A stretch of DNA of 42,757 nucleotides, from the NCBI GenBank assembly GCA_965234725.1, contig CBDDUX010000077.1, forward strand, positions 1 to 42,757, given 5' to 3'. Shown piece by piece: positions 18,888-36,328 of this stretch. Made by a program: the position numbers and the translations under genes. The stretch's first letter is position 1. The number at the start of each line of letters is the position of its first letter. Source of the stretch: Thermoplasmatota archaeon (GTDB taxonomy: Archaea > Thermoplasmatota > Penumbrarchaeia > Penumbrarchaeales > Penumbrarchaeaceae). A model generated the notes under the pieces. The model worked only from the letters and a program-made list of their open reading frames with translations. It was not told the DNA's origin and ran no database searches.

Positions 18888-18936
18888 CCGACCTGCTCTG
18901 GCAACATTAATTAGTGGTTTGGTGCATTGCGGTCGC

Positions 18937-19671
18937 ATGGATGAGAAGGAGTGGGGGGGTTCCTTCGGGGTCTCACAGCTTGACAATATAACCCTTGGAA
19001 CCTTGACGCCGGGCACAATGGGAATTTTTTACGGACCCCCGGGAGCCGGAAAGAGTTCCGTTCTGGTACATTTCCTATTCCAGGGGGCTAAAAAGGGTAA
19101 CAACGTATGCCTGATCACCTGCGAACCCCCGTCCACCATTGCCTCCCGGATAACACAGTTTACAGATTGCAACCAGAAATGGTTGAGGGACGGCTATATC
19201 TCCATCCTCAATCTCTTCGACCTTGCTAACATGATCGGTGTGGACCTGGGCAGGATGGAAGAAGGGGATGCGGACCTTCTATACGACCTCTTCGTCCAGG
19301 TAGTGGACCATCTGGATGCCAAGAGAGTGGTCATTGATCCTGTCAATCCTCTGACTCGGTCTCTCGGGTCAATGGGAATGACGAACTTCTTCCAGACACT
19401 GAAAGGAGACCTGGCCCATAGAGGTGTTATCTCCTTCCTCTGTTTCGATACCAGCAGGGACAGAGGCGATTGGGAGGACAATGAACTTTCACCCTACGAT
19501 ATGGATATAGTGATAAGGTTCAGAAAGGAGAGGGAACCTACATTGGTCCTCAATACACTGACAATAGAAAGGTGGAGGGCAAGTGCCCATGCAAGGAACT
19601 CATATGTCGTTGACATCTCAGATGATGGAGTGGTCCTTGTTCCACGAATCAAACCCCTGGAGGTCAGGTAG
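18937..19671 (+). CDS. KaiC/RAD55-family RecA-superfamily ATPase
   Basis: 'FGVSQLD..TLG', intact Walker A GPPGAGKS, 'ITCE' and Walker B 'RVVIDP'. TTAATTA about 24 nt before ATG 18937. Confidence 0.85.
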   Translation: MDEKEWGGSFGVSQLDNITLGTLTPGTMGIFYGPPGAGKSSVLVHFLFQGAKKGNNVCLITCEPPSTIASRITQFTDCNQKWLRDGYISILNLFDLANMIGVDLGRMEEGDADLLYDLFVQVVDHLDAKRVVIDPVNPLTRSLGSMGMTNFFQTLKGDLAHRGVISFLCFDTSRDRGDWEDNELSPYDMDIVIRFRKEREPTLVLNTLTIERWRASAHARNSYVVDISDDGVVLVPRIKPLEVR

Positions 19672-20250
19672 ATGATCATAAACGAGATCAAGGATATTGA
19701 TCATAAGACCCTGGGAAAAGGATCCCAACTCTTGATCCAGGTATCTGGAGAGAGATATCTCAAGGGTATCTCGGACCTAATATCAAGGCTAACCAAGGAG
19801 AAGGGTTCCAAAGGGATACTTCTGAGCACTCTATGGTCTTCAAATGCACTTTCAAGAAGGATAGGCCTCTCAAAACTTCCAAGAGGATCATTGAATGTGA
19901 TCGATACCATCTCATTATCACTCGGGTCCAAAGTGACAGGTGGTGAAGGATTCATCTTCCTGCCTACACCATCCCCTCTGGAATACATCCTTGTGGAGAT
20001 GGAGAGGCTCATCAGGGAATATGGAGACGATCTGAAATTCTTTGTCCTGGATTCCTTGACGGTAATTGACAGATATTATACCCAGGGACAGCTCAGTGAG
20101 TTCTTCCATTACCTGATGAACAGAATGCTGGAAGAGGAGATAACCGTGATCATCTTCGACCAATCCCCGGATGGTGTCCCCGGGATCGGGGCCCATCTAT
20201 CCTCCATAATGGACAGAACGATCAGGATCGGCAAGGAGGAGTTGAAATGA
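19672..20250 (+). CDS. Inactivated KaiC/RecA-fold protein (DUF835-like)
   Basis: No Walker A, but retains 'VIDTIS', 'PTPSPL', 'FVLDSLT', 'FFHYL' and 'MDRTI', typical of degenerate archaeal KaiC-like proteins. GGAGGT RBS. Confidence 0.7.
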   Translation: MIINEIKDIDHKTLGKGSQLLIQVSGERYLKGISDLISRLTKEKGSKGILLSTLWSSNALSRRIGLSKLPRGSLNVIDTISLSLGSKVTGGEGFIFLPTPSPLEYILVEMERLIREYGDDLKFFVLDSLTVIDRYYTQGQLSEFFHYLMNRMLEEEITVIIFDQSPDGVPGIGAHLSSIMDRTIRIGKEELK

Positions 20251-20996
20251 TGAGGATCCATGTAGGAGGTCAGGAGTTCTCAGACCTGGTCGGGTCCAGG
20301 ATAGGGGTCGGGAAATGCATACTCTTCAAGTATGGACCCGGAACCGGAGGTGATATGCTACTCAAGCAGTTCCTTTCCAGTACTGTTGAAGGCACCCATT
20401 CCATCTATCTGTCCACCCATGAGACCGAGGGAGAACTGCTCTCATCCGTTCGTGAACTGGGGCTTCCACCGGACCTTGAACTGATCTCGCTGCTTCCTGA
20501 CCTTACGGATGGGCTGGATGATGTGGTGAAGAAGGACAGGTTCAGAACCGATGGGATCATGGTAACGGACCTTCTGGAGGTCTCTTCGAATACACAACTT
20601 GGGCGAAATAGAAGGGACGGAGTGAAGAAGGTACTTGCCCAGGTATCTTCCGTGGCTCAAAAACAGATCCTTCCATTCAAACTTGTACTCGATTCCGTGA
20701 TGGACCTTGTAAGGAAGACCTCTCTTGATGAGGTCGAGGATCGTATCCAGATACTGAAAAAGGTGGTCAAGGAAAAAGAGGGAATTGCGATCCTTGCGGT
20801 TCCGCTCGGATTTGAGGGGCTGAAGGACATCGAAACGACCCTTTTCGATGCTATAATCACGGTTAGAGCTGACAAGTCCTCCGGGGCATGGAAGAGGACC
20901 GTTACCCTTGAGAATCTCAAGGGTTCCTCCATTCCTCCCACCGAATGGGAACTTGGACATTTGAGGAACATACAGACGGCGAAAAGCCTGAAATGA
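20247..20996 (+). CDS. RAD55/KaiC-like protein with degenerate Walker A
   Basis: 'YGPGTGGDMLLKQF' (the GK[ST] Lys is missing), 'IYLSTHET', 'LVLDSV', 'FDAII' and 'NLKGS'. ATGA overlap with the previous gene and a GGAGG RBS. Confidence 0.78.
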   Translation: MMRIHVGGQEFSDLVGSRIGVGKCILFKYGPGTGGDMLLKQFLSSTVEGTHSIYLSTHETEGELLSSVRELGLPPDLELISLLPDLTDGLDDVVKKDRFRTDGIMVTDLLEVSSNTQLGRNRRDGVKKVLAQVSSVAQKQILPFKLVLDSVMDLVRKTSLDEVEDRIQILKKVVKEKEGIAILAVPLGFEGLKDIETTLFDAIITVRADKSSGAWKRTVTLENLKGSSIPPTEWELGHLRNIQTAKSLK

Positions 20997-21062
20997 GGTT
21001 TTTACCTGAGGCATCCAATTTGAGGCAAGGATTTATATTATCTGCTTTCTGATGTTCATTTG

Positions 21063-21335
21063 ATGAAAGGTGGTTCAATAGGTGATCTGCCATTACCCGG
21101 GGTGGATCCTTATTCTGAAGCAGTAGCTCTAACAAGGTCCCACCAGACCGCTGAAAGTTCTAAATGTACAGTTTGCGGATCACCTCATCAGACCTGGTAC
21201 AACAAGATAATGACGATCGGGAACGATGAAGGTGTCCTATCAGGTGACCTGTCCATCAGGAAGCTTGTTATCAAGACATGTCTCTCCTGCGGTCATACGG
21301 CCCCTGTGACATTCCAGCTTGTCAGGGATATGTGA
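21063..21335 (+). CDS. Small zinc-ribbon protein
   Basis: CTVC and CLSCGH pairs. TTTATA at 21032-21037, 25 nt upstream of ATG 21063. Confidence 0.6.
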   Translation: MKGGSIGDLPLPGVDPYSEAVALTRSHQTAESSKCTVCGSPHQTWYNKIMTIGNDEGVLSGDLSIRKLVIKTCLSCGHTAPVTFQLVRDM

Positions 21336-21345
21336 TCGGGTCCTT

Positions 21346-22167
21346 TTACAGATCGATATCGGGTCTGGCTTCTTTAAGAACAGGTATCTTTTCTCTCAGA
21401 GAATACATCTCCTTTGGATCTATAAGGCAGGTGGACCAACCCTCACCTTCATCCACGGATGCGATAACGTTCCCAAATGGTGAGAAGATCCTTGATCTGC
21501 CTCCCATCATGGATCCACCATGGTCACCGTAAACATTGGTACCGATCACAAAACACTGGTTCTCGATCGCTCTAGCACGAAGGAGGGTCTCCCACTGGAA
21601 TGTTCTAAATGATGGCCATTGGGCAGGATAGATCAGAAGCTGTGCTCCCCCGAAGACAAGTTTTCTGGAAAGCTCAGGAAAACGTACTTCGTAACATATT
21701 AGGGGGCCAATGGGAACATCATCAAAACGGAACAGGGTCAAATGGTCCCCCGGTGTGAAGAACCGGTCCTCTCCGGACCTCGAGAAAAGGTGGGTCTTAT
21801 CATATACACCTTTTATTTTTCCATCCCTGCCAATGTGAATTGATCTGTTGTAGAAGCAGGAATTCTCCTCGACGACCTGGGTGAAGATAATATTGACAGA
21901 ATGTTCCGATGAAAGATCCGAAAGGGCCCCTATAACATCCCCGGACCTCTTTGCCAGTTCTTTCAGCATGCCGTATGGGAATCCGGTTGCAAAAACCTCA
22001 GGAAGGACCAGGAGGTCGGGTTTGCTGTTCTTGATACAATCCTCTATCATCCTTGTGGCAGATCTGAGATTGCCATCGATATCTCCAAGATGAAGTTCTG
22101 TCTGAATGATACCCGCTGTGAACTCCTTGGTCCACTTTGGAAACGGGGAGATATCTCCATTCTCCAT
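21346..22167 (-). CDS. Nitrilase / carbon-nitrogen hydrolase (omega-amidase/YafV-like)
   Basis: Catalytic triad motifs 'LPEVF', 'YDKTHLF' and 'ICYEVRFPE', plus 'RARAIENQ'. Confidence 0.92.
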   Translation of the reverse strand: MENGDISPFPKWTKEFTAGIIQTELHLGDIDGNLRSATRMIEDCIKNSKPDLLVLPEVFATGFPYGMLKELAKRSGDVIGALSDLSSEHSVNIIFTQVVEENSCFYNRSIHIGRDGKIKGVYDKTHLFSRSGEDRFFTPGDHLTLFRFDDVPIGPLICYEVRFPELSRKLVFGGAQLLIYPAQWPSFRTFQWETLLRARAIENQCFVIGTNVYGDHGGSMMGGRSRIFSPFGNVIASVDEGEGWSTCLIDPKEMYSLREKIPVLKEARPDIDL

Positions 22168-22169
22168 GG

Positions 22170-22499
22170 TCAGATGACCTCGCTTAGTTCCTGAACAAGC
22201 CTGGGTTTTGGCAGGAATCCCATTCTTGTCTTAACGAGCTTTCCACCTTTATAGAATGCAAGTGTCGGGATCGATCTTATACCCAGCTTCATGGGTGTCT
22301 TCATGTTCTTGGTAACATCCATCTTTCCGATGGCTATCTTTCCCTTCATCTCGGATGAAAGCTGCTCCAGAATAGGCGCTATCATCTTGCAGGGAGCACA
22401 TGCCGGACCCCAGAAATCTACCAGCACTGTATCAAACTTCTTTGTGAAATCCTCGAATCCCTCGTCATTTATCTCCACGATCCCATCGGGCCAATCCAT
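22170..22499 (-). CDS. trxA: Thioredoxin
   Basis: 'LVDFWGPACAPCKMIAP' and 'GIRSIPTL'. Confidence 0.9.
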   Translation of the reverse strand: MDWPDGIVEINDEGFEDFTKKFDTVLVDFWGPACAPCKMIAPILEQLSSEMKGKIAIGKMDVTKNMKTPMKLGIRSIPTLAFYKGGKLVKTRMGFLPKPRLVQELSEVI

Positions 22500-22668
22500 A
22501 GGTCATCTCCGTCTCCGATTAGGGTACCTAACTATTTATCCTTGACCCCGGACCCGCATTTCGGATGTTGATAATTTACCGAGGTCCATGACCTCTGTGA
22601 AGGTGTTTCTACATTCCATACTATCGGTCTTAACAGGGTTTATCAAAAGGGAATCCATTCCCCCCTGG

Positions 22669-24044: not shown

Positions 24045-27000
24045 TCACCCTTGATCATTATTCAAATTATCCGAAAGCAGTTCCGGAGAGGTTTTTCCAT
24101 TATCCAATTCCTTCCTGGTTTCAAGCAATATGAATGGAGAATCACCCACCTTCTGTTGATCTGGTGGAAGCGGAGCTCTCTTGAATTCGTTCATTGCCTC
24201 TTGTTCTCCCATATTATTTTCCTTCCGTTTCTTCATCAGAATGAACACCAATATCGAACCGATCAGAATCAACAGGAAAAAAAGGATCGTTATTATGATA
24301 CCAATGGGGAGTTTCTTTTCATCCTTTTCATTTTCATCCAAGATCTCTTTCCGAGGCAGGACCTCTATCTCCTTCTCGGTCGATGCCGAGAGACCCTCTC
24401 CATCGGTGACCATTAATGTTATAAGATGACGACCGGCAGGAAGGGAGAGATTGATGGATTGACCAGGACCTATTTCACCGGTAATGTTAGAGGACCAGGT
24501 GAATACGAGTGTATCACCATATGGGATATCGACATCCTTTGCGGAAGAATCAACGGTCTGGTCCTCCCCTTCCCTGAAGGTCGATCCGGCAATTATCCTG
24601 ACATCATACGGAGGATCATTTACGGGAGTCACGATGACATTGGTGTTGATGGAGACTGAGAGTAACCCATCAGAAGCTGTGATCTCAAAGGATCCAGTTC
24701 CTGACCAATTCCGGATTGGTATCACTTTCAGCAATCCATTCTTGATGGATAAGGTGAAGTTCTCGGAAGGGTCGAAATCGAATGTGAGCGGATCATTGTC
24801 GATATCGAAGAATACCTCATTTAGGTCAAGTTCGGTTCCGGGGGAATCCTCTTCCATTTCAAGGACGATCTCGGTTAGGTTGAGTTCAGGACCGTCATTG
24901 ACATTCAGGACCTTCAATGTGAATATTCTGAAATCGATCCCTCCGTTACCATCATTGACGGAAACGTTCAACCACCAAACACCCACATCTTCATTTGCGG
25001 GGATACCAGTGATGTTTCCTGTGTTTGGATCGATCACAAGGAAGGAAGCATCGGTGTCCAGGTCCCATCTTAAAACATCTTCTCTATCGATATCTTCCGC
25101 ATCCAGGTCCAAATAGAATGGCATATCCTCCACAGCATCAGGCACATCGAAGAGTTCAATGAAAGGATCGTCATTGACATTGAGGACCGTCAACGTGAAA
25201 TTCACATCATCCGATCCTCCCTTTTCATCGGACAGGTAAACATGTACCCACCAGGAACCTATATCGTCACATCTCGGTAAACCTGAGATCATACCACTCC
25301 TCTTTCCGATCTCAATAAAATCAGCATCGGTTTTCATTGACCACAACATATTGTCCCTTGTCGGGTCCTCATCGAAAGCATTGAGGTCCAACGAGAAACT
25401 TTCATCCTCACGGATCTCTGGGACCTCGAAGGGGAGGATCACCGGATCATCATTCGTGTTGTATACATTGATCCTGAATTCCTTCTCGTCGGTTCCTCCG
25501 TTTCCATCATCAAGGATTATTTTGATCGAACAGGATCCCGTGTCGTTATTGGTGGGCATCCCCGAGATCGTTCCGGTATCCGGATCGATTTCGAGGAATC
25601 CGGCATCGGTTTCCATGGACCATGTTAACTTATCGTTGACAGGATCGATGTCGCTTCCCTCGAAACCATGAGAATAGAACAGGTCCTCCGTGGCATGGGG
25701 CATACTCGTTGTTTCGATCTTCGGAGGATCATTGATGTTGACCACTTCCATAGTGAAGTTCAGGTAATCGAAATTGATGTTGTTGATAGTGGCTGACACG
25801 TTCACCCAGTATTCTCCGACATCATCGTTTGTTGGTGTACCTGATAGTATCCCTGATTCTTCGATCGTCAGCCAACTTCCCGCATCAGTCCTAATATTCC
25901 AAAAAGCTCCCTTTCCACCGGGAAGGGATGTGTTCGCATCCAGGTTCATTCTGTAATTTTGATCCTCATATGCAGTGTCATTATCGATCCTGGTGACTAT
26001 CTTACATAGACCACCGTAATCACACATTCTAAGAAACGGATAGGTATTGTCTTCCACAATATTCCAGGTATTCTCGAAGTCCCAGCCTGCATATCTGCTC
26101 TGTTTCATCATGTTGGACGTATTCATTCCCAATCCGCCATCGCTGACCGTTCTTCCAGAAGTTTCGACATCCCAATAACAATTGGACACACTACCATAAT
26201 GATGGTAACCAATGAAACCACCACCACTTCCGGAGTAATTTGATGTGATCTTTCCTGTAGAATAACAATTCGTAATTTGAGCATTATAAAAATATCCGAT
26301 AAATCCTCCGACTGATTTCAATGAACAGAATACATCCCCAGTTGAATAGCAATTAGATATTGATCCAGAGTCCCAATCTCCAATCAGTCCTCCTACACAA
26401 TTGCCATATACATCCATTGTTGAAAAGCTGGTTTTAACTGTTGCACTTCCGCTTCCAATCAAACCTCCTGCACGGGCTATCAAATTTTCAATATCATTTA
26501 TTTGACCTAACGAGGAGCATTTTTCGATTATCCCATAATTGCTCATCCCAGCAATGCCACCGCAACTATCCAATCCATTTATTATTACATTTACATAACA
26601 TTTACTGATCGTTCCAAAATCTATGCTTGAATAATGGATTCCGGAACTTCCAGCTATTCCACCTATATTGTAGTATCCTGAAATTTTTCCAGTCACCGAG
26701 CTATTGTATATGAGGCCCAAATTTGTTCCTGCAATGCCTCCGATTAAATAATAACCAGTGATAACTACATCTCTCATGGAAATATTGGTGATTTGAGCGG
26801 TTCCATTGTTAAACCCAATTAAACCAATAAATGATTCATTTAGTCTGTTTATGAAAAGACCAGAAATGAAAAAACCCTTACCATCAAGACTACCTTCAAA
26901 GTAATTAGTTGAATTCCCGATCGGAAGGAAAGCCTTTCCACCGTTCCAGGTCCTGGTCTCGCTTGCATTGATATCATTAATAAGAATGTAATGAGCGTCC

Positions 27001-27200
27001 AGGTCCTCGTTCATCGATTGTAGCTGAGTTACATTCGAGATCCGATAGGGATTCGAATCGGTTCCATTGCCGCCTGCAAAGGAGGAAGATAGTGAGGAAA
27101 AGATTTTGGGAGATATGGAAATCTCGGCGTCAACTGGTAAGATGCTGAAAGAGCCGGATATGAGAAATGTGAATATTAGAAAGATTACAAACTTCCTCAT
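24045..27200 (-). CDS. Surface adhesin-like protein A: signal peptide, GLUG repeats, cadherin/Ig-like repeats, PKD-like domain, C-terminal TM
   Basis: 'FAGGNGT..NPYRISN', GGL/IG GLUG repeats, repeated 'NVNDxP' cadherin-like linkers and TM followed by KKRK. Confidence 0.85.
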   Translation of the reverse strand: MRKFVIFLIFTFLISGSFSILPVDAEISISPKIFSSLSSSFAGGNGTDSNPYRISNVTQLQSMNEDLDAHYILINDINASETRTWNGGKAFLPIGNSTNYFEGSLDGKGFFISGLFINRLNESFIGLIGFNNGTAQITNISMRDVVITGYYLIGGIAGTNLGLIYNSSVTGKISGYYNIGGIAGSSGIHYSSIDFGTISKCYVNVIINGLDSCGGIAGMSNYGIIEKCSSLGQINDIENLIARAGGLIGSGSATVKTSFSTMDVYGNCVGGLIGDWDSGSISNCYSTGDVFCSLKSVGGFIGYFYNAQITNCYSTGKITSNYSGSGGGFIGYHHYGSVSNCYWDVETSGRTVSDGGLGMNTSNMMKQSRYAGWDFENTWNIVEDNTYPFLRMCDYGGLCKIVTRIDNDTAYEDQNYRMNLDANTSLPGGKGAFWNIRTDAGSWLTIEESGILSGTPTNDDVGEYWVNVSATINNINFDYLNFTMEVVNINDPPKIETTSMPHATEDLFYSHGFEGSDIDPVNDKLTWSMETDAGFLEIDPDTGTISGMPTNNDTGSCSIKIILDDGNGGTDEKEFRINVYNTNDDPVILPFEVPEIREDESFSLDLNAFDEDPTRDNMLWSMKTDADFIEIGKRSGMISGLPRCDDIGSWWVHVYLSDEKGGSDDVNFTLTVLNVNDDPFIELFDVPDAVEDMPFYLDLDAEDIDREDVLRWDLDTDASFLVIDPNTGNITGIPANEDVGVWWLNVSVNDGNGGIDFRIFTLKVLNVNDGPELNLTEIVLEMEEDSPGTELDLNEVFFDIDNDPLTFDFDPSENFTLSIKNGLLKVIPIRNWSGTGSFEITASDGLLSVSINTNVIVTPVNDPPYDVRIIAGSTFREGEDQTVDSSAKDVDIPYGDTLVFTWSSNITGEIGPGQSINLSLPAGRHLITLMVTDGEGLSASTEKEIEVLPRKEILDENEKDEKKLPIGIIITILFFLLILIGSILVFILMKKRKENNMGEQEAMNEFKRAPLPPDQQKVGDSPFILLETRKELDNGKTSPELLSDNLNNDQG

Positions 27201-29300
27201 TTCATTACCTCATTTCTCTCGTTATGTGGATTCAATCTCTCCAGATGATCCTCCCTTCCATTTAATTCATACATTGATTTGGATCGTTGAATCATGAAAG
27301 TAGAATCACCCTTAATATACTGATACGGAAGAGGTGGGCCTCTCTGAAATCGCGAAAGGTCCGCTTCCTTTTTCTTTATCTCTTTTTTCTTTTGCACTTT
27401 GAGGAAGAGGAAAATTCCACTGACAATAGCAATAACAAAGATGATCACGATCGAGATGATCAGAAACGGTATCAAGAATCCATTTTCTGCCTCATCTTCA
27501 CCTTCGGCTCTTCTTTCATCATTTGGAAGGACCTCGATCTCCATCGATTTGGAAGCGGAGAGGCCCTCCTTATCGGTGACAATCAGTGTGATTTGATATT
27601 TACCTGGAGGGAGGGACAGATTGATCGATTTACCAGATCCGATCTCTCCGGTAATATTGGAGGACCACTTGTATGTCAGCTCATCCCCGTAGGGAAGGTC
27701 CACATCCTTTGCCGATGAGTTGACGGTCTGGTCCTCTCCTTCTCTGTAGGTGGGATTTGCCAAGATGGTAACATCGAATAGAGGATCGTTAACGGGACGA
27801 ACATTTACAGTGATGTTCAGTTGGGCTTTCAGAAAACCATCGGAAGCGGTGTAGATGATGTTCTTTATCCCGGACCAATTCCCTAACATTTCGAGGGTGA
27901 CCCTGCCATCCATTGTTAGGATTGCCATCGGATCTCCCCTGTTCAATGAATGAGCATATCTCAAGGTGTCACCGTCATCATCGTGGAAGACCTCATCGAG
28001 ATGGAACAGTAGAATGGTGGTGCCCTCATCCATCGTAATATTGAGGGATGAAGGATCTGCAATGGGTGCATCGTTGACATTGAGGACCTCCAGTTCGAAC
28101 ATCCTGTAATCGGATCCTCCATTTCCGTCGAAAACGGAAACGGTGATGCTCCATGTTCCAACATCGTCGTTGGTGGGAGATCCTTTGATGTTTCCCGTGG
28201 ACCTATCGATGGAGAGGAATGAAGCGTTGGTTTCGAGGTTCCATTCCAGAACATCTTCCGGATCGATATCTTCCGCATCCAGGTCCAGATAGAATGGTAT
28301 ATCCTCCACAGCATCAGGCACATCAAAGAGTTGGATGATCGGATCGTCATTGACATTGAGGACCGTCAACGTGAAATTCACATCATCCGATCCTCCCTTT
28401 TCGTCGGACAGGTAAACATGTACCCACCAGGAACCTATATCATCATATCCCGGTAAACCCGAGATCATACCACTCCTCTTTCCGATCTCAATAAAACCAG
28501 CATCGGTTCTCATTGACCACAACATATTGTCCCTTGTCGGGTCCTCATCGAAAGCGTTGAGGTCCAGAGAGAAACTTTCATCCTCGTTTATAATTGGAAT
28601 ATCAAAAGGAAGGATCACCGGATCATCATTCGTGTTGTATACATTGATCCTGAATTCCTTCTCATCGATTCCTCCGTTTCCATCGTCGAGAAAGATATTG
28701 ATGGTGCAGGAACCCGTGTCATTGTTTGTCGGGGTTCCTGAAATAGTTCCGGTTTCCGGATCGATATCGAGGAAACCTGCATCCGTCACAATGGACCATG
28801 TCAATTTATCGTTGACAGGATCGATGTCGCTTCCCTCGAATATGAAGGAGTAGAACAGGTCCTCTGTGGCATGGGGCATACTCGTTGTTTCGATCATTGG
28901 AGGATCATTGGTGTTGACCACTTCCAGAGTGAAGTTCAGGTAATCGAAATCGATGTTGTTGATGGTAGCCGAAGCATTCACCTCGTATTCACCGACATCA
29001 TTATTGGTTGGAGTTCCCGAGAGAACCCCTGATCCCTCAACCGTCAGCCAGCTTCCCGCATTGGTAATTATATTCCAGAAAGCTCCCTTTCCACCGGGAA
29101 GGGATGTGTTTGCATCCAGGTTCATTCTGTAATAATAATCCTCATAAGCAGTGTCATTCTCGATCCTGGAGACAATTTTACAAAGACCGCCGTAATCACA
29201 CCATCTGAGAAATGGATATGAACTGTCTTCCATTATGTTCCAGGTGTTCTCGAAGTCCCAGCCTGCATATCTGCTCTGTTTCATCATGTTGCTTGTATTC
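25086..29300. repeat. Long direct repeat between the two adhesin genes (~25086-26120 vs ~28262-29300)
   Basis: Long identical runs, e.g. gtcattgacattgaggaccgtcaacgtgaaattcacatcatccgatcctcccttttc and ttctcgaagtcccagcctgcatatctgctctgtttcatcatgttg, at an offset of about 3176 nt. Confidence 0.9.
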
Positions 29301-30352
29301 ATTCCCGTTCCAAGGTCACTGGTATTTCTACCTGATGTTTCCTTGTCCCAGTAGCTGTTTACCACGCTTCCAAGTCCTGGTCTATGTGAACCAATTAGAC
29401 CTCCTGCATAATGTTGGGCCGATACTTTTCCAATTGAATAACAATTGGATATTTTTCCTCTTTCGATATATCCAACTAATCCACCGGCTGTACCCATGCT
29501 ACTATTTACATTGCCCGTTGAATAACTATCTTTCACACTTCCTCCAGAATTACCAGTAGATCCGATTAATCCACCCGAAGAATACTCGCCATATACATTT
29601 CCGGTTGCAAAACAATTTTCCACTTTTCCATCAGATTTCCCAACCAATCCACCAGCATCTGCCTTTGCATCGACCACTCCATGAGATGAGGAATTTTTTA
29701 CCAATCCAAAAATTAAATAACCAACCAAACCCCCAATATTGTAGGAGCCACGGACACATGCTAAGGTATTACATCTTTCAGCGATTCCTTTAAAGGCCCC
29801 AAATATTCCACCTGTATTCATTACTCCTCTAATCTCTCCTTTGATCGAGCAATTGAAAATATTACCAGTTCCTGTACCAATCAATCCTCCCGTGTAATTA
29901 TTGCCCATGATCATAACCTTTGATAATGTTAGATCTTTAATTCTAGATTCTTGCGAAGAAATTGATATTAATCCAATATAATCATCATCGGATCTGTTTA
30001 TCTCAAGTCCGGAAATATCAAATCCCTTTCCATCAAGACTTCCATCAAAGGAATTTGTCAAATTTCCAATTGGAAGGAAACCCTTCCCATCATTCCAGGT
30101 CCTCGTCTCGCTTGCATTGATGTCGTTTACAAGAATGTAATGGGCATCCAGGTCCTCGTTCATCGATTGCAGCTGGGTTATATTCGAGATCCGATACGGG
30201 TTCGATTCCGAACCGTTACCGCCTGCAAATGAAGTGGATGAGGGAAGGGCCTCGAAGGAAAATGAATTCTGAACCTCTCCCTGGATCGAATTGAAAGATA
30301 GGCTGCTCGCTATCAACGATCCAAATATCAAGAAGATGAGGATCCTTCTCAG
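27197..30352 (-). CDS. Surface adhesin-like protein B, tandem paralogue of A; probable CTG start
   Basis: Same architecture as A. Extending the ORF from TTG 30331 to CTG 30352 gives (M)RRILIFLIFGSL, matching A's MRKFVIFLIFTFL. GGGGTGA RBS precedes the CTG, with an in-frame TGA at 30370-30368. Confidence 0.8.
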   Translation of the reverse strand: MRRILIFLIFGSLIASSLSFNSIQGEVQNSFSFEALPSSTSFAGGNGSESNPYRISNITQLQSMNEDLDAHYILVNDINASETRTWNDGKGFLPIGNLTNSFDGSLDGKGFDISGLEINRSDDDYIGLISISSQESRIKDLTLSKVMIMGNNYTGGLIGTGTGNIFNCSIKGEIRGVMNTGGIFGAFKGIAERCNTLACVRGSYNIGGLVGYLIFGLVKNSSSHGVVDAKADAGGLVGKSDGKVENCFATGNVYGEYSSGGLIGSTGNSGGSVKDSYSTGNVNSSMGTAGGLVGYIERGKISNCYSIGKVSAQHYAGGLIGSHRPGLGSVVNSYWDKETSGRNTSDLGTGMNTSNMMKQSRYAGWDFENTWNIMEDSSYPFLRWCDYGGLCKIVSRIENDTAYEDYYYRMNLDANTSLPGGKGAFWNIITNAGSWLTVEGSGVLSGTPTNNDVGEYEVNASATINNIDFDYLNFTLEVVNTNDPPMIETTSMPHATEDLFYSFIFEGSDIDPVNDKLTWSIVTDAGFLDIDPETGTISGTPTNNDTGSCTINIFLDDGNGGIDEKEFRINVYNTNDDPVILPFDIPIINEDESFSLDLNAFDEDPTRDNMLWSMRTDAGFIEIGKRSGMISGLPGYDDIGSWWVHVYLSDEKGGSDDVNFTLTVLNVNDDPIIQLFDVPDAVEDIPFYLDLDAEDIDPEDVLEWNLETNASFLSIDRSTGNIKGSPTNDDVGTWSITVSVFDGNGGSDYRMFELEVLNVNDAPIADPSSLNITMDEGTTILLFHLDEVFHDDDGDTLRYAHSLNRGDPMAILTMDGRVTLEMLGNWSGIKNIIYTASDGFLKAQLNITVNVRPVNDPLFDVTILANPTYREGEDQTVNSSAKDVDLPYGDELTYKWSSNITGEIGSGKSINLSLPPGKYQITLIVTDKEGLSASKSMEIEVLPNDERRAEGEDEAENGFLIPFLIISIVIIFVIAIVSGIFLFLKVQKKKEIKKKEADLSRFQRGPPLPYQYIKGDSTFMIQRSKSMYELNGREDHLERLNPHNERNEVMK

Positions 30353-30453
30353 AACCTCACCCCTACTTCAATTCCTGATATTTCCTCCACATCAATTGTA
30401 TCGAAGGGGTCCTTTTAATATTCTTTGAGACATATTCGGAATGAGGGCTTCAA

Positions 30454-30924
30454 ATGACCACGTATGCGAACTTCGAGACCAACATGGGAAAGATCAAGAT
30501 CAGACTTGAAACCGAAAAGGCACCGCTGACAACCAAGAACTTCATGGACCTTGCGAACAAAGGCTTCTACAACGGCCTCATCTTTCATCGGGTCATCCCT
30601 GATTTCATGATACAGGGAGGATGTCCCCAGGGAACCGGGACCGGAGGTCCTGGATACAAGATCAAGGACGAGTTCCATCCTCAGCTAAAACACACCAAAG
30701 GGGCCATCTCAATGGCGAATGCAGGACCCAATACAGGTGGAAGCCAGTTCTTCCTCGTCACTAAAGAAGGTGGAACAACATGGCTCGACAACCATCACTC
30801 CGTCTTCGGTTACATCGTGGAAGGCCAGGACATAGCCGATAAGATATCCCTGGTCCAGAAGGACAGACAGGACAGACCCGTATCACCCATAGTCATGAAC
30901 AGGATCGCTATTATCGAAGAATAG
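30454..30924 (+). CDS. Cyclophilin-type peptidyl-prolyl cis-trans isomerase
   Basis: 'FHRVIPDFMIQGG', 'SMANAGPNTGGSQFF' and 'WLDNHHSVFG'. Confidence 0.97.
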   Translation: MTTYANFETNMGKIKIRLETEKAPLTTKNFMDLANKGFYNGLIFHRVIPDFMIQGGCPQGTGTGGPGYKIKDEFHPQLKHTKGAISMANAGPNTGGSQFFLVTKEGGTTWLDNHHSVFGYIVEGQDIADKISLVQKDRQDRPVSPIVMNRIAIIEE

Positions 30925-30946
30925 ATCCTACCACTGATGTGGCATC

Positions 30947-30981
30947 AGGTCCCGGGCTATAATATCGGGACCTTTTTTTTT
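30947..30981 (+). terminator. Hairpin plus oligo-T terminator after the cyclophilin gene
   Basis: AGGTCCCG (30947-54) / CGGGACCT (30966-73) followed by a T run, between convergent genes. Confidence 0.7.
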
Positions 30982-30995
30982 ATTTAATTCTCCAT

Positions 30996-33596
30996 TCAGC
31001 CCTGGGGAGGTATGTACTGAGGCTGCTGTGGCTGGGCTTCAGGAGGCGGAGTTGTAACAGGCTGAAGGGGTTGACCCTGCGAAACCTGCTGTGGTACTTC
31101 CTGCGGCTGCTGCATTTGAGCAGGGGGGAGTCCCTGCGGTTGATCCGCTGCATTAGAGGGAGGGAGGCCTTCTTGAACAGGTTGTCCGTACATCTGTTGT
31201 GCACCCGGGTAGTTTGGATAACCTTCCAGGTTCGTTCCGAACAATTCCTCCTCAACAGATATCTGAGGTTGCGAGGGGACCGGCGGTTCCTCTTCCTCCT
31301 TCTTCTTTCTCTTTGAAAGGAAGACGAAAAGGGCGATAACCAGGACCACAATAATGACCAACACCAGTATTATCACCAGCACCAATACAGGGAACCCATC
31401 ACCATCGCCACCGTTACCATCTGCATCCTTGGCATCGGTAATGATAGGTTTCTTGGTACCCAGACCGGTGGAGTCCCAGGAATTCAGGACCTCAAGGGTC
31501 TGACCGTTGGCATCCTTTATGGTGGTCTTCATCTGTGCCACTGCATAGAGGTCAAAATCGGGTTTGATCCCCAGGTCGTCCATCTCCACAATTGTCAATG
31601 TGATCTCGACACCCATTCCACCATCCAGCATCCTTACCGTATCAAGAGGCACTATCGAGGGAGGATAGGTTGCTGAAGGACCTCTTAGATCGAACTGGAG
31701 CCGTGTGTATCTAACATTCGAGAATGGGACAGGGAAGGGATAATCAAGGGCAGATTGTGGATCCAGGATTATCTGTGTCTCGTTGAACTCTTTTGTAAGG
31801 AAGTAAAGTTCCAGCTTTGGTTCCTGGATGATCTCCTCGGTGTAGAAGAAATCAAGCTCCTTTGCGAACATGACCCTAACTTTGTAAATGGCCCCATTCC
31901 TTGTCCCTATGACAGAAGAGACATCTAGCGAGTATGGTCCGCCATTCAAGAGGGTAACCTCTTTTGTGGTCCTTGAGATTACGATAGCGGTAGTGTTGTC
32001 CGTGTGGGACCTATCAAGTTCCTTTCCCTGGAATATCTCACCAGGGACCCTGGCCTTCTCTACCTTGATGGTTACCCAATCCTTGGAAAATAATCCTGAA
32101 CTGTCCGTTACGTTCACCGTGATATTATAGGTCCCAACGGTTGAGATAGTCCTGAAGATGTGCTTGCCGTACCCGAGTACTTCACCATCCTTGGTCCAGG
32201 TGTAATTGAGGACATCTCCGTGTATGAGATCATCATCCGCTGACCTGGATGCATCGAACTCGATCACGGAGGATGTGTTGTAGACGAACGATGAGAGGGG
32301 CTGATCAAGTTTTGCCCTGGGTCCGTCGTTAACATTGATCACTGTCAATGTGAAGTTCTGATATATCCTGCCGGGTGTCGGGGGATAATCCGGTCTTCCG
32401 GATTCGGTGGACCTGTCCTGGACATAGGCCATTATGTCATAGGTGCCCACAAGCTTGTTGTAGGTCATGAACTTGAGCAGACCTGTATCCTTGTCCCAGT
32501 AGTAATCCTCCTGGAACTCTATCTGCTCCTGGGTCTTCTCGTATATTGAAGTAGTGATATTGATCCCGAAAACAAGTGATTGGTCAACATCCACATCAGA
32601 TGCCTCGAGCTGGACAGTGACCAGCTCATCTTCCAGGGCCTCCACCTCTCCGAGAGGTTCCATGGAGGGAACATCATTGACAGGGGAGACATAGACATAA
32701 AATTCCTTTCTATAATACAATCCACCCTGGTCCGAACAGTTGAAGAGGAATACTGCAAATTTATTCATATAATCCTGGACGTTCCTACCACTTAACCTCT
32801 GAGCACTGGGAATATAGGGACAGGACCAATTCTCTTTAGGAACGAATTGGACAAAACTACCGTTTGTTGTTATGTCAACTGTAATATTTTGGGCCAGGTC
32901 ATTTACCGGTTCACAAGTGTAGGTCAATGTATCGAACGGATCCTTGAGGTCCCCGAAGATCTCGTTTATGGGATCATGGTCCTTGTTGATCCCGATATAC
33001 GATCCGTCCTCTGGCAACTTGATGGAGTAGTAATCCTTTTCCGAGATCTGGGTAGGTCTGTCATTGACATTTACCACTTTGAACTTGATCTGGGATGTTG
33101 ATTCGCCCGTCCTGTTCCTGGCGATGATAGTGACGTTGAACCATTCCTTTCCATATATCTGGTTGTTCCAATCATCCTTGTTCTCCGTGATGGTCACCAT
33201 ACCAAAACTGGATTCAAGATAATAGGTCACGATATCGATCTTGATAGGTGTGTTTTCCTTGTTGAAACCCCACGGATACTTGACTTCGAAGGCTTTCAAC
33301 GGGTAGGGTATATCTTCCCCTTCTTTCCATTCATAGGAGGGATCGTAGAACAAATCATCTGAACCGAATCCGGTCACATTTAGGTATGCGCTAACAATCT
33401 GACCATATCCTTCTCTTAGGGTGATCTCCACAACGGACCTGTTGACGAGGGGTCCTCCTTCATCTCTCGTGGGGATATCATTTGAGACCATACCCTGATC
33501 CGCCATTGATAGTAAGGGCATGGAGGATATCATGATGATGATCAGGAAAATGGCTGTCAAGGGTCTGATGCTGGCGCGGTTTGGGGGGACCCACAT
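30996..33596 (-). CDS. Membrane-anchored surface protein with cadherin-like and PKD domains and a Pro/Gln-rich cytoplasmic tail
   Basis: Signal peptide, NVND motifs, PKD-like 'FDASRSAD...YTW...GTYNITVNVTD', TM followed by KRKKK, and a P/Q-rich C-terminus. GAGGTG RBS. Confidence 0.82.
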   Translation of the reverse strand: MWVPPNRASIRPLTAIFLIIIMISSMPLLSMADQGMVSNDIPTRDEGGPLVNRSVVEITLREGYGQIVSAYLNVTGFGSDDLFYDPSYEWKEGEDIPYPLKAFEVKYPWGFNKENTPIKIDIVTYYLESSFGMVTITENKDDWNNQIYGKEWFNVTIIARNRTGESTSQIKFKVVNVNDRPTQISEKDYYSIKLPEDGSYIGINKDHDPINEIFGDLKDPFDTLTYTCEPVNDLAQNITVDITTNGSFVQFVPKENWSCPYIPSAQRLSGRNVQDYMNKFAVFLFNCSDQGGLYYRKEFYVYVSPVNDVPSMEPLGEVEALEDELVTVQLEASDVDVDQSLVFGINITTSIYEKTQEQIEFQEDYYWDKDTGLLKFMTYNKLVGTYDIMAYVQDRSTESGRPDYPPTPGRIYQNFTLTVINVNDGPRAKLDQPLSSFVYNTSSVIEFDASRSADDDLIHGDVLNYTWTKDGEVLGYGKHIFRTISTVGTYNITVNVTDSSGLFSKDWVTIKVEKARVPGEIFQGKELDRSHTDNTTAIVISRTTKEVTLLNGGPYSLDVSSVIGTRNGAIYKVRVMFAKELDFFYTEEIIQEPKLELYFLTKEFNETQIILDPQSALDYPFPVPFSNVRYTRLQFDLRGPSATYPPSIVPLDTVRMLDGGMGVEITLTIVEMDDLGIKPDFDLYAVAQMKTTIKDANGQTLEVLNSWDSTGLGTKKPIITDAKDADGNGGDGDGFPVLVLVIILVLVIIVVLVIALFVFLSKRKKKEEEEPPVPSQPQISVEEELFGTNLEGYPNYPGAQQMYGQPVQEGLPPSNAADQPQGLPPAQMQQPQEVPQQVSQGQPLQPVTTPPPEAQPQQPQYIPPQG

Positions 33597-33797
33597 TTAA
33601 AACACCTCTACTGAACGCGGAAAGACCGTGTCCGGCGGTCAAGAGTTCCTACAGTTATAAATATTTTCAAGGACCCTGGATTACAAATAACATTTCACAG
33701 ACCTGAATTCCGATGATATATATCGATCGGTTCTGGTCAAGGAAAGGTTATTTATGTCCATTTGACCTTTTCAGCCTAATAAATGGAGGAGAAATAA

Positions 33798-34169
33798 TTG
33801 ACCGAAAAAGAGGAGGAGAACATGAGCATTTCCCTTCCTGTCAGGAAGAGTGCCATATCCTCGATCGAGAGCGGTCTGGCGAGGATCAATATCTCCCAAA
33901 TGGATATGTTTCAGGGGAACGAGCATCCAATGGCTGTTCTCTCCCGGGAGAAGAAGAGGGTTGTCGTGAAGATAGTATCGGATAGACTTGCCCCGGAAGG
34001 ATATGTCACAATAAGGGCGAAGGATATGGAGGACCTTGATGTGAAGGAAGGGGAAGAGGTTGTCCTTCAGCCCTATTCCAATCTGACATCGGACCTGAAA
34101 AGCTCATGGAAGAAGTTCATTAACAGATTCAAAAAGAATGATGTAGAAGAAGAGGAAGGTGATGATTGA
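33798..34169 (+). CDS. Stand-alone double-psi beta-barrel (Cdc48/VAT N-domain-like) protein with a C-terminal amphipathic helix and acidic tail
   Basis: 'GLARIN...RVVVKIV...EGYVTI...MEDLDVKEGEEVVL' resembles CDC48_N. GGAGGAG RBS 6 nt before TTG. An alternative ATG lies at 33822. Confidence 0.6.
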   Translation: MTEKEEENMSISLPVRKSAISSIESGLARINISQMDMFQGNEHPMAVLSREKKRVVVKIVSDRLAPEGYVTIRAKDMEDLDVKEGEEVVLQPYSNLTSDLKSSWKKFINRFKKNDVEEEEGDD

Positions 34170-34442
34170 ATGAAACTGACACAACGGTTCCAGGCAATAT
34201 CTGTCACTCATCCGCTATCCATGAACAGAAAGATAGACCAGTACTTAAGCGAAAAACTCCCAGATATGATGGACGAGTACAAGATAGCTGACAGGTCTGA
34301 TATCTCTGATATGGATAAGGGTTTCGAGGATCTTGAAACAAGGATGGATGCACTGGATGTCTGGAAAAAAGGGTTCGATGGAAGATTGGATAACTCTCAG
34401 AATAAAATGGCCAGATTGAGGGTCAAGTATGGAGTGAAATGA
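34170..34442 (+). CDS. Small coiled-coil protein, paralogue 1 of an IDxY(L/F)xE...E(Y/W) family
   Basis: GGTGA RBS. 'KIDQYLSEKLPDMMDEYKIADRSD' followed by heptads. Confidence 0.75.
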   Translation: MKLTQRFQAISVTHPLSMNRKIDQYLSEKLPDMMDEYKIADRSDISDMDKGFEDLETRMDALDVWKKGFDGRLDNSQNKMARLRVKYGVK

Positions 34443-34448
34443 GGTGAT

Positions 34449-34784
34449 ATGATGGCATTCGATTGGACTACATTCTGGTTTGTCGTGATAATTGGCTTAT
34501 TAGTGTTTGCCTTCGTTCTTGTATTGATGTGGTATGTTTCACTCAGCAAGAAGCGGAAGAAGCTTCCATCCCATATCGACCTCTACTTCGATGAGAATTT
34601 CAGGAAGATAATGGATGAATGGGATTTTACCACAAGGGACAAGGTGAAGGATTTCAAGAAGGATATGGGAAAGAGGTTGACCAAAGTGGGAACAGATATT
34701 TCCGCACTTGAAAAGAAGAAAGCAACCCTTGACAGAAGAATGACCGCAGTAGAACGCGGAATGGAAACCCTGGAGGCTTTCTGA
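34449..34784 (+). CDS. N-terminally membrane-anchored coiled-coil protein, paralogue 2
   Basis: GAGGTGA RBS. TM at aa ~8-31 followed by KKRKK, then 'HIDLYFDENFRKIMDEWDFTTRD' and heptads. Confidence 0.8.
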   Translation: MMAFDWTTFWFVVIIGLLVFAFVLVLMWYVSLSKKRKKLPSHIDLYFDENFRKIMDEWDFTTRDKVKDFKKDMGKRLTKVGTDISALEKKKATLDRRMTAVERGMETLEAF

Positions 34785-34797
34785 GGAGGTGTGAAAG

Positions 34798-35142
34798 ATG
34801 ACCGAAGAGATGATCGAAGAGGAAAAAAGAAAGGGATTCTTCACATGGCTCAAGGAGAAGTTCTCGAAAGATGAGGAGGAAGAACCGGAAGAGGCTCCGC
34901 AGTACAAACGGCGGCTCTTTGACGGCAGGATCGAGAAGTATCTGGATCAGAACCTGGATGCCTATATTTCAGAATACGGCATAGTCACTGGTCTTGACCT
35001 TGAAGTTTACGAGGAGAGGTACGGTAGATTGACGAAGAGGATATCCACTATGTCAGAATATATGTCCGAGGCTGATGTGAAGGTATCCGTCCTGGAAAAG
35101 GACCTTTCCCAGATCCAGGAGGCCGCATCCAAAAAGAAATGA
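34798..35142 (+). CDS. Coiled-coil protein with an N-terminal amphipathic helix, paralogue 3
   Basis: GGAGGTG RBS. 'KGFFTWLKEKF', then 'RIEKYLDQNLDAYISEYGIVTGLD' and heptads. Confidence 0.8.
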   Translation: MTEEMIEEEKRKGFFTWLKEKFSKDEEEEPEEAPQYKRRLFDGRIEKYLDQNLDAYISEYGIVTGLDLEVYEERYGRLTKRISTMSEYMSEADVKVSVLEKDLSQIQEAASKKK

Positions 35143-35148
35143 GAGGTT

Positions 35149-35649
35149 ATGGATATGCTTGCAGAGATCATAGAAAAATACAGGGTCGTCAATTCTGTTG
35201 GAACTACCATCGGAAAGGTCAAGGACATCCATATAGACCTCAACACCTGGAAGATCGAGGCTTTCGAGATCTCACCGGGTGCATTGAAGAAGGATTTCCT
35301 TCTCAGAGCTTCCGAGATAGTGAAGTTTGACGAGAAGGACCAGATAGTGATCGTTGCTGACGACTATCTTTCGGAAGAGGTTCCCAAGACACCCAGAAAG
35401 GATCTGTTCCCCTTCGATGAGCTAAAGAAGAAGAATGTTGTCGACAGGAACGAAGAGAAGGTGGGCAAGGTCTACAATCTTGAGATACCCTTCGAAAAAT
35501 TGAAGGTGCTCAAGGTCTGGAAATTGCTCATCAAGACAGGTATTTCCGACAGACGGCTGAGGATCTCCATCACCGAGGTGGAGGAGATAATGGAGAACAT
35601 CACTCTAAAGGGAGTCCTGGAGGATTATACCGAGAAGGACGACCGATAG
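35149..35649 (+). CDS. Tandem PRC-barrel domain protein
   Basis: Two PRC motifs: 'RVVNSVGTTIGKVKDIHID' and 'NVVDRNEEKVGKVYNLEI'. Confidence 0.85.
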   Translation: MDMLAEIIEKYRVVNSVGTTIGKVKDIHIDLNTWKIEAFEISPGALKKDFLLRASEIVKFDEKDQIVIVADDYLSEEVPKTPRKDLFPFDELKKKNVVDRNEEKVGKVYNLEIPFEKLKVLKVWKLLIKTGISDRRLRISITEVEEIMENITLKGVLEDYTEKDDR

Positions 35650-35728
35650 ACGCGATATGTTCCATTACGCAAAATTGAAATAACCATCCACTTTATCGTG
35701 GATGTCCACTATCGAACCAGGTGATAAC

Positions 35729-36328
35729 ATGTCCACCACCGAGAAGATGACAACGCAGGTACTTGAGCTCAGGGAGAAAGGCCTTTCAAGGGAAGATATT
35801 GCGAAGGAACTTCATCTCTCAGAGGAGACCGTCGGCTGGCTGCTGTCCAGGGGAAAGGGATCCGAGAAACCACCTGCTGACATATACATAGGCTGGAGGT
35901 CAATGGGAGTGTACTCCACCAGGCTTACACACCTTGCGAGGATATTCTCGGATATCATTTTGGAGGAATGTGAGGAAGCTGGCCAAGAGGTCGATGCAAT
36001 CATGGGAGTTGCCATCAATGGCATACCGCTTGCTACCACCATTGCCAACGAAATGGACCTGGAATTGGTGATCTACAGGCCTCTGAGGTCAGACCAAACA
36101 GATGATGTTGGTGGCTCCACCCTGTCAAACTTTGCAGGTGTAAGGGATAAGAGGGTGGTTATCGTTGATGATGTCCTTTCATCCGGAAAGACCATGAATG
36201 GGGCGATAGACTACCTGAAAGCAAATCAGGGTGTCCCTGCACTATGCCTTTCGATCATAAACAAACAGCAGTTCAACGAAATTGACGGGGTCCCGGTAAG
36301 GGCTCTCATCAGGACCCATGTGGTCTGA
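35729..36328 (+). CDS. gfcR: HTH + PRTase-domain protein (archaeal PyrE-like / GfcR-type regulator)
   Basis: N-terminal HTH 'LREKGLSREDIAKELHLSEETVGWLL', 'PADIYIGW', 'NGIPLA', 'SNFA' and PRPP motif 'VIVDDVLSSGKT'. GGTGA RBS before ATG 35729. Confidence 0.85.
   Translation: MSTTEKMTTQVLELREKGLSREDIAKELHLSEETVGWLLSRGKGSEKPPADIYIGWRSMGVYSTRLTHLARIFSDIILEECEEAGQEVDAIMGVAINGIPLATTIANEMDLELVIYRPLRSDQTDDVGGSTLSNFAGVRDKRVVIVDDVLSSGKTMNGAIDYLKANQGVPALCLSIINKQQFNEIDGVPVRALIRTHVV

Follow-up and report, generated by a model that had tools for sequence, protein, structure and literature searches.

Few archaeal systems that organise membranes are known: the FtsZ/SepF/CdpB and Cdv/ESCRT systems and, more recently, Dip and CdpA/CdpC. 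In the available text of one report, heterodimers of the PRC-barrel proteins CdpB1 and CdpB2 chain into filaments, which the amphipathic helix of SepF tethers to the membrane (10.1101/2023.03.28.534543). The present analysis concerns five small genes (termed g1 to g5) at positions 33798-35649 on the plus strand of a 42,757-nucleotide stretch of DNA from a Thermoplasmatota archaeon (positions 1 to 42,757 of contig CBDDUX010000077.1, assembly GCA_965234725.1; this whole stretch is 'the window' in what follows), which encode a stand-alone barrel of the Cdc48 N-domain type, three coiled-coil paralogues and a tandem PRC barrel. On balance we favour the reading that g1-g5 are the subunits of one membrane-anchored, cytoplasm-facing scaffold or complex and, jointly with this, that what the operon encodes is one part of a larger conserved set, to which two further families (gX and gY) and a Prok-RING_2 protein also belong. 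The available part of a paper on PRC barrels states that their genes often neighbour Cdc48, and mentions duplicated PRC proteins but not this gene cluster (10.1101/2023.03.28.534520); an ESCRT survey, as far as its available text goes, describes a different minimal system of Thermoplasmata.

Calling of open reading frames (ORFs) places the five co-directional genes head-to-tail, with gaps of 0, 6, 13 and 6 nucleotides at the g1/g2, g2/g3, g3/g4 and g4/g5 junctions. These coordinates bear out the tight operon described in an earlier, sequence-only reading of the same DNA, as well as its divergence from the upstream gene, which encodes an 866-amino-acid PKD/cadherin surface protein at 30996-33596 on the minus strand. 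The same reading assigned Shine-Dalgarno motifs to the first four genes; these are present, but their restriction to four genes has to be given up, as a GGAGG/GAGGT-like motif stands upstream of all five starts. The divergent intergenic region (33597-33797), in which AT-rich boxes can be read near 33655-33667 and 33779-33786, is a presumed promoter region.

The three central genes encode proteins whose proposed mutual homology could be corroborated by several comparisons. Pairwise BLASTP searches among g2, g3 and g4 gave E-values of 1e-4, 6e-3 and 2e-3 in a single common register, and pairwise hhalign comparisons gave probabilities of 81-90% (E 1e-5 to 1e-6); in the last ~43 residues of each protein, the fraction of LIVMF at heptad positions a and d is 0.75-0.85 versus 0.03-0.13 elsewhere, a pattern matched by 0 of 1000 shuffles. 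The soluble paralogue g2 (34170-34442, plus strand; 90 amino acids) consists of a short helix, a turn and the ~43-residue heptad helix. The second, g3 (34449-34784, plus strand; 111 amino acids), adds a clear N-terminal transmembrane (TM) helix (residues 9-27, KD19 3.09) followed by a KKRKK stretch, so that by the positive-inside rule its coiled coil would be cytoplasmic. The third, g4 (34798-35142, plus strand; 114 amino acids), begins with a conserved aromatic and cationic segment (GFFxWxKxxFxK), from which an acidic linker leads to the invariant motif YKRR..DGR and on to the coiled coil; the hydrophobic moment of its N-terminus ranges from 0.28 to 0.65 across the family and is not singled out by shuffles.

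A search of 5.8 billion clustered proteins turned up 220 members of the g4 family, and among the 120 members listed all given names are 'hypothetical' and none has a Pfam domain; a search of 1.84 billion proteins yielded 52 representatives at E <=1e-3. Profile searches of Pfam, NCBIfam and the PDB assigned no family to g2, g3, g4, gX or gY, and returned scattered sub-threshold matches to coiled coils and zinc ribbons. Several named identities were considered and rejected. No SNARE family appears among the Pfam matches (E up to 1 or 10), and the membrane anchors of g3 and gX are N-terminal rather than C-terminal. An identity of g3 with PspB or PspC would rest on a PspB match of E 0.052 (13.8 bits versus an NCBIfam cut-off of 51.7) that covers the TM helix only; the best matches to Phasin (PF05597) reach E 0.0011-0.0065 (17-19 bits versus a cut-off of 28.8), and PhaC_N was not found in the organism's own genome. 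In a search of the Atlas, the nearest named cluster was PHA_synth_III_E (score 0.75), which is at chance level, and the other matches were to unnamed archaeal clusters.

The first gene of the operon, g1 (33798-34169, plus strand; 123 amino acids), starts at TTG 33798, with ATG 33822 as an alternative, and encodes a barrel (approximately residues 10-92) followed by a cationic helix at residues 98-119; the tail of the protein is acidic. Its match to the Pfam family CDC48_N is below cut-off (E 1.4e-3). A profile built from 12 family members and compared with the PDB retrieved only the N domains of Cdc48/p97/NSF and designed double-psi barrels (E 0.006-1.3), and an AlphaFold2 model (pLDDT 78) had its best Foldseek matches among p97 N domains (E 2e-7, TMq 0.58) and also matched 7dg7 and 7dg9, which are isolated barrels from VCP-like ATPases of archaea. 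Profile and model thus agree upon the Cdc48-N-like barrel that had been proposed from the sequence alone. The helix has a conserved cationic and aromatic face, and its hydrophobic moment (0.66) is equalled by 85 of 500 shuffles and is therefore not exceptional. Of the three membrane-targeting elements originally claimed for the operon, the TM helix of g3 stands; the amphipathic helices of g1 and g4 are conserved, cationic and aromatic but have unexceptional moments, and their binding to the membrane is no more than plausible. A further stand-alone CDC48_N-like barrel (119 amino acids, Pfam E 9.2e-6) is encoded elsewhere in the genome, on contig C7 at 102038-102873 (L070); its gene overlaps the start of a gene for a 159-amino-acid membrane protein, apparently as a separate two-gene unit.

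The last gene, g5 (35149-35649, plus strand; 166 amino acids), matches the Pfam family PRC above cut-off (E 1.6e-10) over two stretches, and these together with its structure model (pLDDT 86.8) uphold the tandem PRC barrel proposed for it. Foldseek aligned the model with chains of the Archaeoglobus fulgidus CdpB1:CdpB2 complex (8qzo) at E 3.9e-9 and TMq 0.66-0.68, over 163-167 columns with 20% identity, while single PRC domains cover only half of it; a g5 profile matched the CdpB1:CdpB2 structure at E 8.5e-4. The second barrel carries an invariant basic patch (KxWK...G...RR.R), and the two halves have no detectable sequence similarity to each other. A different PRC gene of this genome may be the nearer counterpart of CdpB: on contig C21 (42167-44084), an open frame of 82 residues with a single PRC match directly follows a Cdc48-like gene with two AAA domains, which is the neighbourhood reported for CdpB-type genes, and this frame is a likelier CdpB orthologue than g5.

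The gene order is conserved in the phylum. Among 41 related genomes g5 is present in 31 (22 of the 23 in the window's own family), and g4 is present in exactly these 31. By tblastn, g1-g5 occur in the window's order at 17 of 18 loci from relatives (L002-L019), the remaining one (L018) being cut inside g4. GTDB species genomes, scanned separately, yielded 32 loci, of which one was spurious (Tannerellaceae) and was left out; the other 31 (L031-L061) come from records titled Thermoplasmatota, Thermoplasmata, Thermoplasmatales or uncultured archaeon. All five genes were found at 27 of these independent loci (23 as g1-g5 and four as g5-g1-g4), and the other four loci are cut by contig ends. Synteny in relatives and in other archaeal metagenome-assembled genomes (MAGs), by which the operon was to be judged, is therefore well established within Thermoplasmatota. 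The entire cassette has also been duplicated. The window's own genome carries a second complete copy on the minus strand of contig C47 (~7636-9479; L021, 3634-5479), whose proteins are each 45-62% identical to those of the first; complete second copies are present at three of the four second-copy loci fetched from relatives (L023 is cut), and several relatives have two or three copies of the cassette alongside a single gY and a single RING gene.

Where the sequence-only reading fell short was in the extent of the unit, which at five genes was drawn too small: gX, gY and a Prok-RING_2 protein co-occur with g1-g5, and in other lineages gX and gY lie inside the operon. The former is a coiled-coil protein of ~140 amino acids, anchored in the membrane by a TM helix at its N-terminus and helical over a long stretch, and it has no detectable homology to the g3 family (hhalign 28%); the latter has ~110 amino acids and a C-terminal CPxC...CPxC zinc ribbon. 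At six of six distant loci from other families of the phylum (L063-L068), gX stands between g3 and g4 and gY between g4 and g5. Both follow directly after g5 in L027 and L030, and in L048 two copies of the cassette flank a gX-gY-gX group on one strand. In the window's own genome these partners are not beside g1-g5 but on a separate contig, C48, as a minus-strand operon (20243-22636; L069) for a TM coiled-coil protein (136 amino acids), gY (128), gX (152), the Prok-RING_2 protein (109; PF14445, E 8.5e-14, above cut-off) and a 267-amino-acid protein with TM segments and two winged helix-turn-helix (wHTH) domains. A gene for a NOG1-type GTPase was also seen near the C48 operon.

Presence and absence were counted for every component in the same 401 genomes of the phylum. 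The g4 gene is present in 38, gY in 36 (35 of them in common with g4), gX in 39 (36 in common) and Prok-RING_2 in 40 (32 in common), the mismatches being mostly weak matches or incomplete genomes. None of 14 control genomes, including those of Haloferax, Methanosarcina, Methanocaldococcus and Sulfolobus, contains Prok-RING_2, and model archaea are therefore without the system. These counts bear on the notion that the genes are mere neighbours without a joint function. The interactions proposed here are, to be sure, deduced rather than taken from data; however, gene order is kept across several families of the phylum, the cassette is duplicated as a whole, and even the unlinked partners match in their patterns of presence and absence. 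Synteny and co-occurrence together render mere neighbourhood very unlikely.

In a different reading, the genes would serve an AAA+ unfoldase, either Cdc48/VAT or a Vps4-like ATPase, as its adaptor or quality-control platform at the membrane, loosely comparable to endoplasmic-reticulum-associated degradation or to NSF/SNAP, with barrel, RING and zinc ribbon capturing clients and the coiled coils acting as the anchor. The Cdc48/p97 N-domain fold of g1 and the co-occurrence of Prok-RING_2 with the operon both speak for such a platform, as do the proximity of PRC-barrel genes to Cdc48 noted in the available text of 10.1101/2023.03.28.534520 and a complete Thermoplasmata genome (L027 5276-6751, identical with L060 7944-9419) in which the cluster is followed by a second Cdc48-N-type barrel of 88 amino acids and a membrane-anchored single-AAA ATPase of 393 amino acids. 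Yet an adjoining AAA gene was noted only in L027/L060: none appears in the ORF lists of L021, L026, L028-L030 and L063-L068, the other loci read for it. In the window's genome, the tblastn matches of the L027 ATPase lie on contigs C40, C21, C8 and C7 whereas the module genes are on C77 (the window), C47 and C48, and no gene for a ubiquitin-like protein, E1, E2 or JAB came up at the loci read, either in their ORF lists or in their Pfam scans. We consider this platform improbable.

The C48 operon suggests yet another function, a membrane-stress or signalling module of the Psp kind, in which coiled coils would sense the state of the membrane and signal through RING and zinc ribbon to a membrane-bound winged-helix regulator. 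There, a gX-like gene, gY, gX and the RING gene are followed, with an overlapping stop and start, by the gene for the 267-amino-acid protein with its TM segments and two wHTH domains; genes that read as Lrp/AsnC-like (named from sequence, without a scan) lie directly upstream of g1 in L027 and L065; the g1 protein of methanogen-type loci (see below) carries a ligand-binding TrkA_C domain; and g3 has the weak PspB-like match mentioned above. That match, however, is limited to the TM helix and far below cut-off, the regulator genes vary among lineages, and no gene resembling PspA or ESCRT-III was seen, with the reservation that the Snf7 search was weak even in controls. A signalling module of this type seems unlikely.

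Outside Thermoplasmatota, a reduced version of the set could be traced. An exhaustive profile search returned proteins of 72-118 amino acids that consist of the shared coiled-coil core only, one of them from a MAG of Theionarchaea; relatives of the group with 101-105 amino acids bear the names Methanolinea mesophila, Methanolinea sp. and Methanoculleus sp. When metagenomes were scanned with three such core-only proteins, 47 loci were obtained. At 22 of these the series is complete: it runs from a g1-type barrel and gX through three coiled-coil paralogues, of which the last has a TM helix, to Prok-RING_2, whose match reaches E 3e-23. The others are truncated or have one part undetected, and no locus departs from this order. 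At these methanogen-type loci, the g1 protein often has additional amphipathic repeats and a TrkA_C domain (E 1.6e-8 to 1.9e-13). Individual fusions of a g1-type barrel to a C-terminal TrkA_C domain were noted at L081 (3703-4605), L095 (3666-4607) and L110 (3867-4604), and the L081 protein has apolipoprotein-like amphipathic repeats (E 4.8e-8, below cut-off).

These repeats are among the features that would fit yet another reading, in which the coiled-coil proteins coat a lipid or polymer inclusion in the manner of phasins. Sub-threshold matches to Phasin occur in one of 11 members of the g4 family (E 0.0059) and in two methanogen-type paralogues (E 0.0011 and 0.0065), and one record of the Joint Genome Institute (JGI) names a relative 'polyhydroxyalkanoate synthesis regulator phasin'. 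All of these matches, however, lie below the curated cut-offs and may reflect merely the common helix-turn-coiled-coil motif; the genome lacks a detectable PhaC_N (the PhaE search matched nowhere, and is hence uninformative); and a TM helix, a RING finger and two barrels are ill-suited to a granule coat. A role as inclusion coat is highly improbable.

Some indication of expression comes from metatranscriptome assemblies. In three libraries, all from a single study, assembled contigs match 33813-34516 and 34584-35800 with an identity of >=95%, bridging the g1/g2/g3 junctions and the junctions from g3 through g4 and g5 to the next gene, g6. They do not cover 33600-33747, which is not usable as a transcript boundary. 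RNA and DNA assemblies of other samples break at 34576-34581, within a conserved stretch of g3; this is no transcript boundary either, because the loose ends read like the paralogous cassette, and copies collapse or branch in assembly.

The scaffold reading is preferred because the three heptad paralogues, including g3 with its TM helix, are constantly co-inherited, which is best explained if their coiled coils form a hetero-oligomeric bundle at the cytoplasmic side of the membrane. In such an assembly, g2, g3 and g4 would pair through their common helix-turn-coiled-coil core to form the bundle, which would be anchored at the inner face of the membrane by the TM helix of g3 and probably also by the cationic and aromatic N-terminal helix of g4. 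The barrels of g1 and g5 may dock on the bundle as peripheral adaptors, g1 contributing a peptide-binding barrel of the Cdc48-N type together with its own cationic helix, and g5, a covalent look-alike of the CdpB1:CdpB2 heterodimer, perhaps chaining into a membrane-proximal filament. The contacts among the proteins and with the membrane, and the cellular role, are what we infer from these features.

A number of points weigh against this scaffold. Neighbouring genes need not encode proteins that bind each other, and the amphipathic-helix scores of g1 and g4 are unremarkable. The RNA-library contigs may contain DNA, come from a single study and do not define transcripts. The tandem nature of g5 rests on Pfam plus a model, because its halves are not detectably similar in sequence. 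Neither a PRC barrel nor gY was detected in the methanogen-type loci; the PRC barrel is a lineage-specific addition, and because the methanogen-type core does without g5 and gY, what the whole set does cannot be read from its CdpB-like part. Three FtsZ_C matches and SepF (contig C3, 120877-121098) are moreover present in the genome, as are four other PRC matches; these include single-domain PRC genes, and one of them is the 82-residue frame after the Cdc48-like gene. The step from a PRC barrel to a division module is weakened both by these genes and by the existence of a core that lacks PRC, and a role in cell division or envelope organisation is accordingly doubtful. A broader possibility, speculative and quite unlikely, is that of an ancient euryarchaeal machine for membrane remodelling, apart from FtsZ and ESCRT, in which the tethered coiled coils of g2, g3, g4 and gX zip into a bundle that is read or reset by a Cdc48/NSF-N-type barrel and a RING protein, and to which Thermoplasmatota would have added a fused, CdpB-like PRC filament former and a zinc ribbon, coupling it to division or vesicle formation.

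The surroundings of the operon are chromosomal, with no mobile element. Downstream of g5, at a distance of 52 nucleotides, g6 (35702-36328, plus strand) encodes a GfcR/orotate-phosphoribosyltransferase-like regulator (NF002620, E 1.5e-61). It follows g5 in 16 of the 18 first-copy loci of relatives (L002-L019; the exceptions are L010, which is cut, and L015), but in no second copy and in no other family (L021-L030), so that its synteny holds only within the window's own family and it is probably outside the module. An ORF downstream of g6 resembles class I lysyl-tRNA synthetase (named by reading its sequence, without a library scan), and the remaining genes of the window have housekeeping functions: EF-1alpha, EF-2, S7, formiminotransferase-cyclodeaminase, geranylgeranyl reductase and isocitrate dehydrogenase.

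Three other regions of the window were noted. Three large predicted surface proteins of 1051, 1044 and 866 amino acids are encoded in series on the minus strand at 24045-33596; the first two have He_PIG, Big_9, GLUG and cadherin-like domains and lie in DNA of lower G+C content (GC, 0.41-0.44), and the third combines PKD/cadherin domains with a TM helix at the C-terminus and a tail rich in P and Q. At 1-2000 the GC is 0.345 versus ~0.47 elsewhere, and an ORF of 537 amino acids there (92-1705, minus strand) has no Pfam match. Finally, at 18919-20996, a 192-amino-acid ORF without a Pfam match lies between two genes for KaiC-like ATPases and is preceded by the gene for a 794-amino-acid TPR protein.

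That no system of this composition had been described was also part of the sequence-only reading, and this holds true within Pfam, NCBIfam, PADLOC, the PDB and the searchable literature; no description of the gene set was found there, the Prok-RING-defining paper (Burroughs et al. 2011) and the supplements of the PRC-barrel paper being outside the search and possibly bearing on the claim. PADLOC (E <=0.01) assigned no anti-phage defence family to g1-g5, gX, gY or the RING protein; on C48, the 136-amino-acid TM coiled-coil protein gave a single weak match, to Cas3 (E 0.0014), and the wHTH protein matches Csa3/CasR through its wHTH domains. As far as their available descriptions go, the components of the Dip system and CdpC (a GTPase, DUF2073, an N-terminal zinc-ribbon protein with a disordered region, and a two-zinc-finger FtsZ1 anchor) do not correspond to the module genes.

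The significance of the locus thus lies in an unannotated eight-component set of constant composition in many Thermoplasmatota, with a reduced core in genomes of the Methanomicrobiales and Theionarchaea types. Because all five proteins of the operon are small and either soluble or single-pass, their reconstitution is feasible; a core-type paralogue is present in the cultured Methanolinea mesophila (known from the protein), and the fused, CdpB-like g5 offers a natural single-chain probe of PRC-barrel polymerisation. Even if the module merely scaffolds a housekeeping process, it would still fill annotation gaps in hundreds of archaeal MAGs.

The Prok-RING_2 family was reportedly defined in the context of prokaryotic ubiquitin-like systems. 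Both the C48 partner gene and the gene that closes the methanogen-type cluster score above its cut-off, but no ubiquitin-like protein, E1, E2 or JAB gene accompanies them in the loci read. With Cdc48/p97/VAT and NSF, g1 has in common the double-psi barrel of the Nn subdomain; in Cdc48 and VAT this barrel is followed by an Nc subdomain and the D1/D2 ATPase domains, whereas in g1, with its 123 amino acids, it is followed by a helix only. CdvA, of the crenarchaeal Cdv/ESCRT system, resembles the assembly proposed for g2-g5 in placing a PRC barrel and a coiled coil at the membrane. In CdvA, however, these are joined in one protein, encoded with CdvB and CdvC, whose tail binds ESCRT-III (CdvB), whereas here barrel and coiled coils are encoded by separate genes; Snf7 was not found in the window's genome by a search that was only weakly positive in the Sulfolobus control.

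A further likeness is to CdpB1 and CdpB2 of the FtsZ-using archaea Haloferax and Archaeoglobus (8qzo and 8onw), with which g5 shares the PRC fold and whose heterodimeric packing its two barrels adopt in the model. CdpB proteins, which bind SepF and localise at the division ring, are small and single-domain and pair as B1:B2, whereas g5 is one fused chain of 166 amino acids with 20% identity to them. By analogy only, g4 might be likened to SepF, as a small protein with an N-terminal membrane-targeting helix encoded beside the PRC unit, the layout of the two (membrane helix, linker, core) being comparable. The partners encoded with g5 are not SepF or FtsZ but coiled-coil, double-psi beta-barrel, zinc-ribbon and RING proteins.

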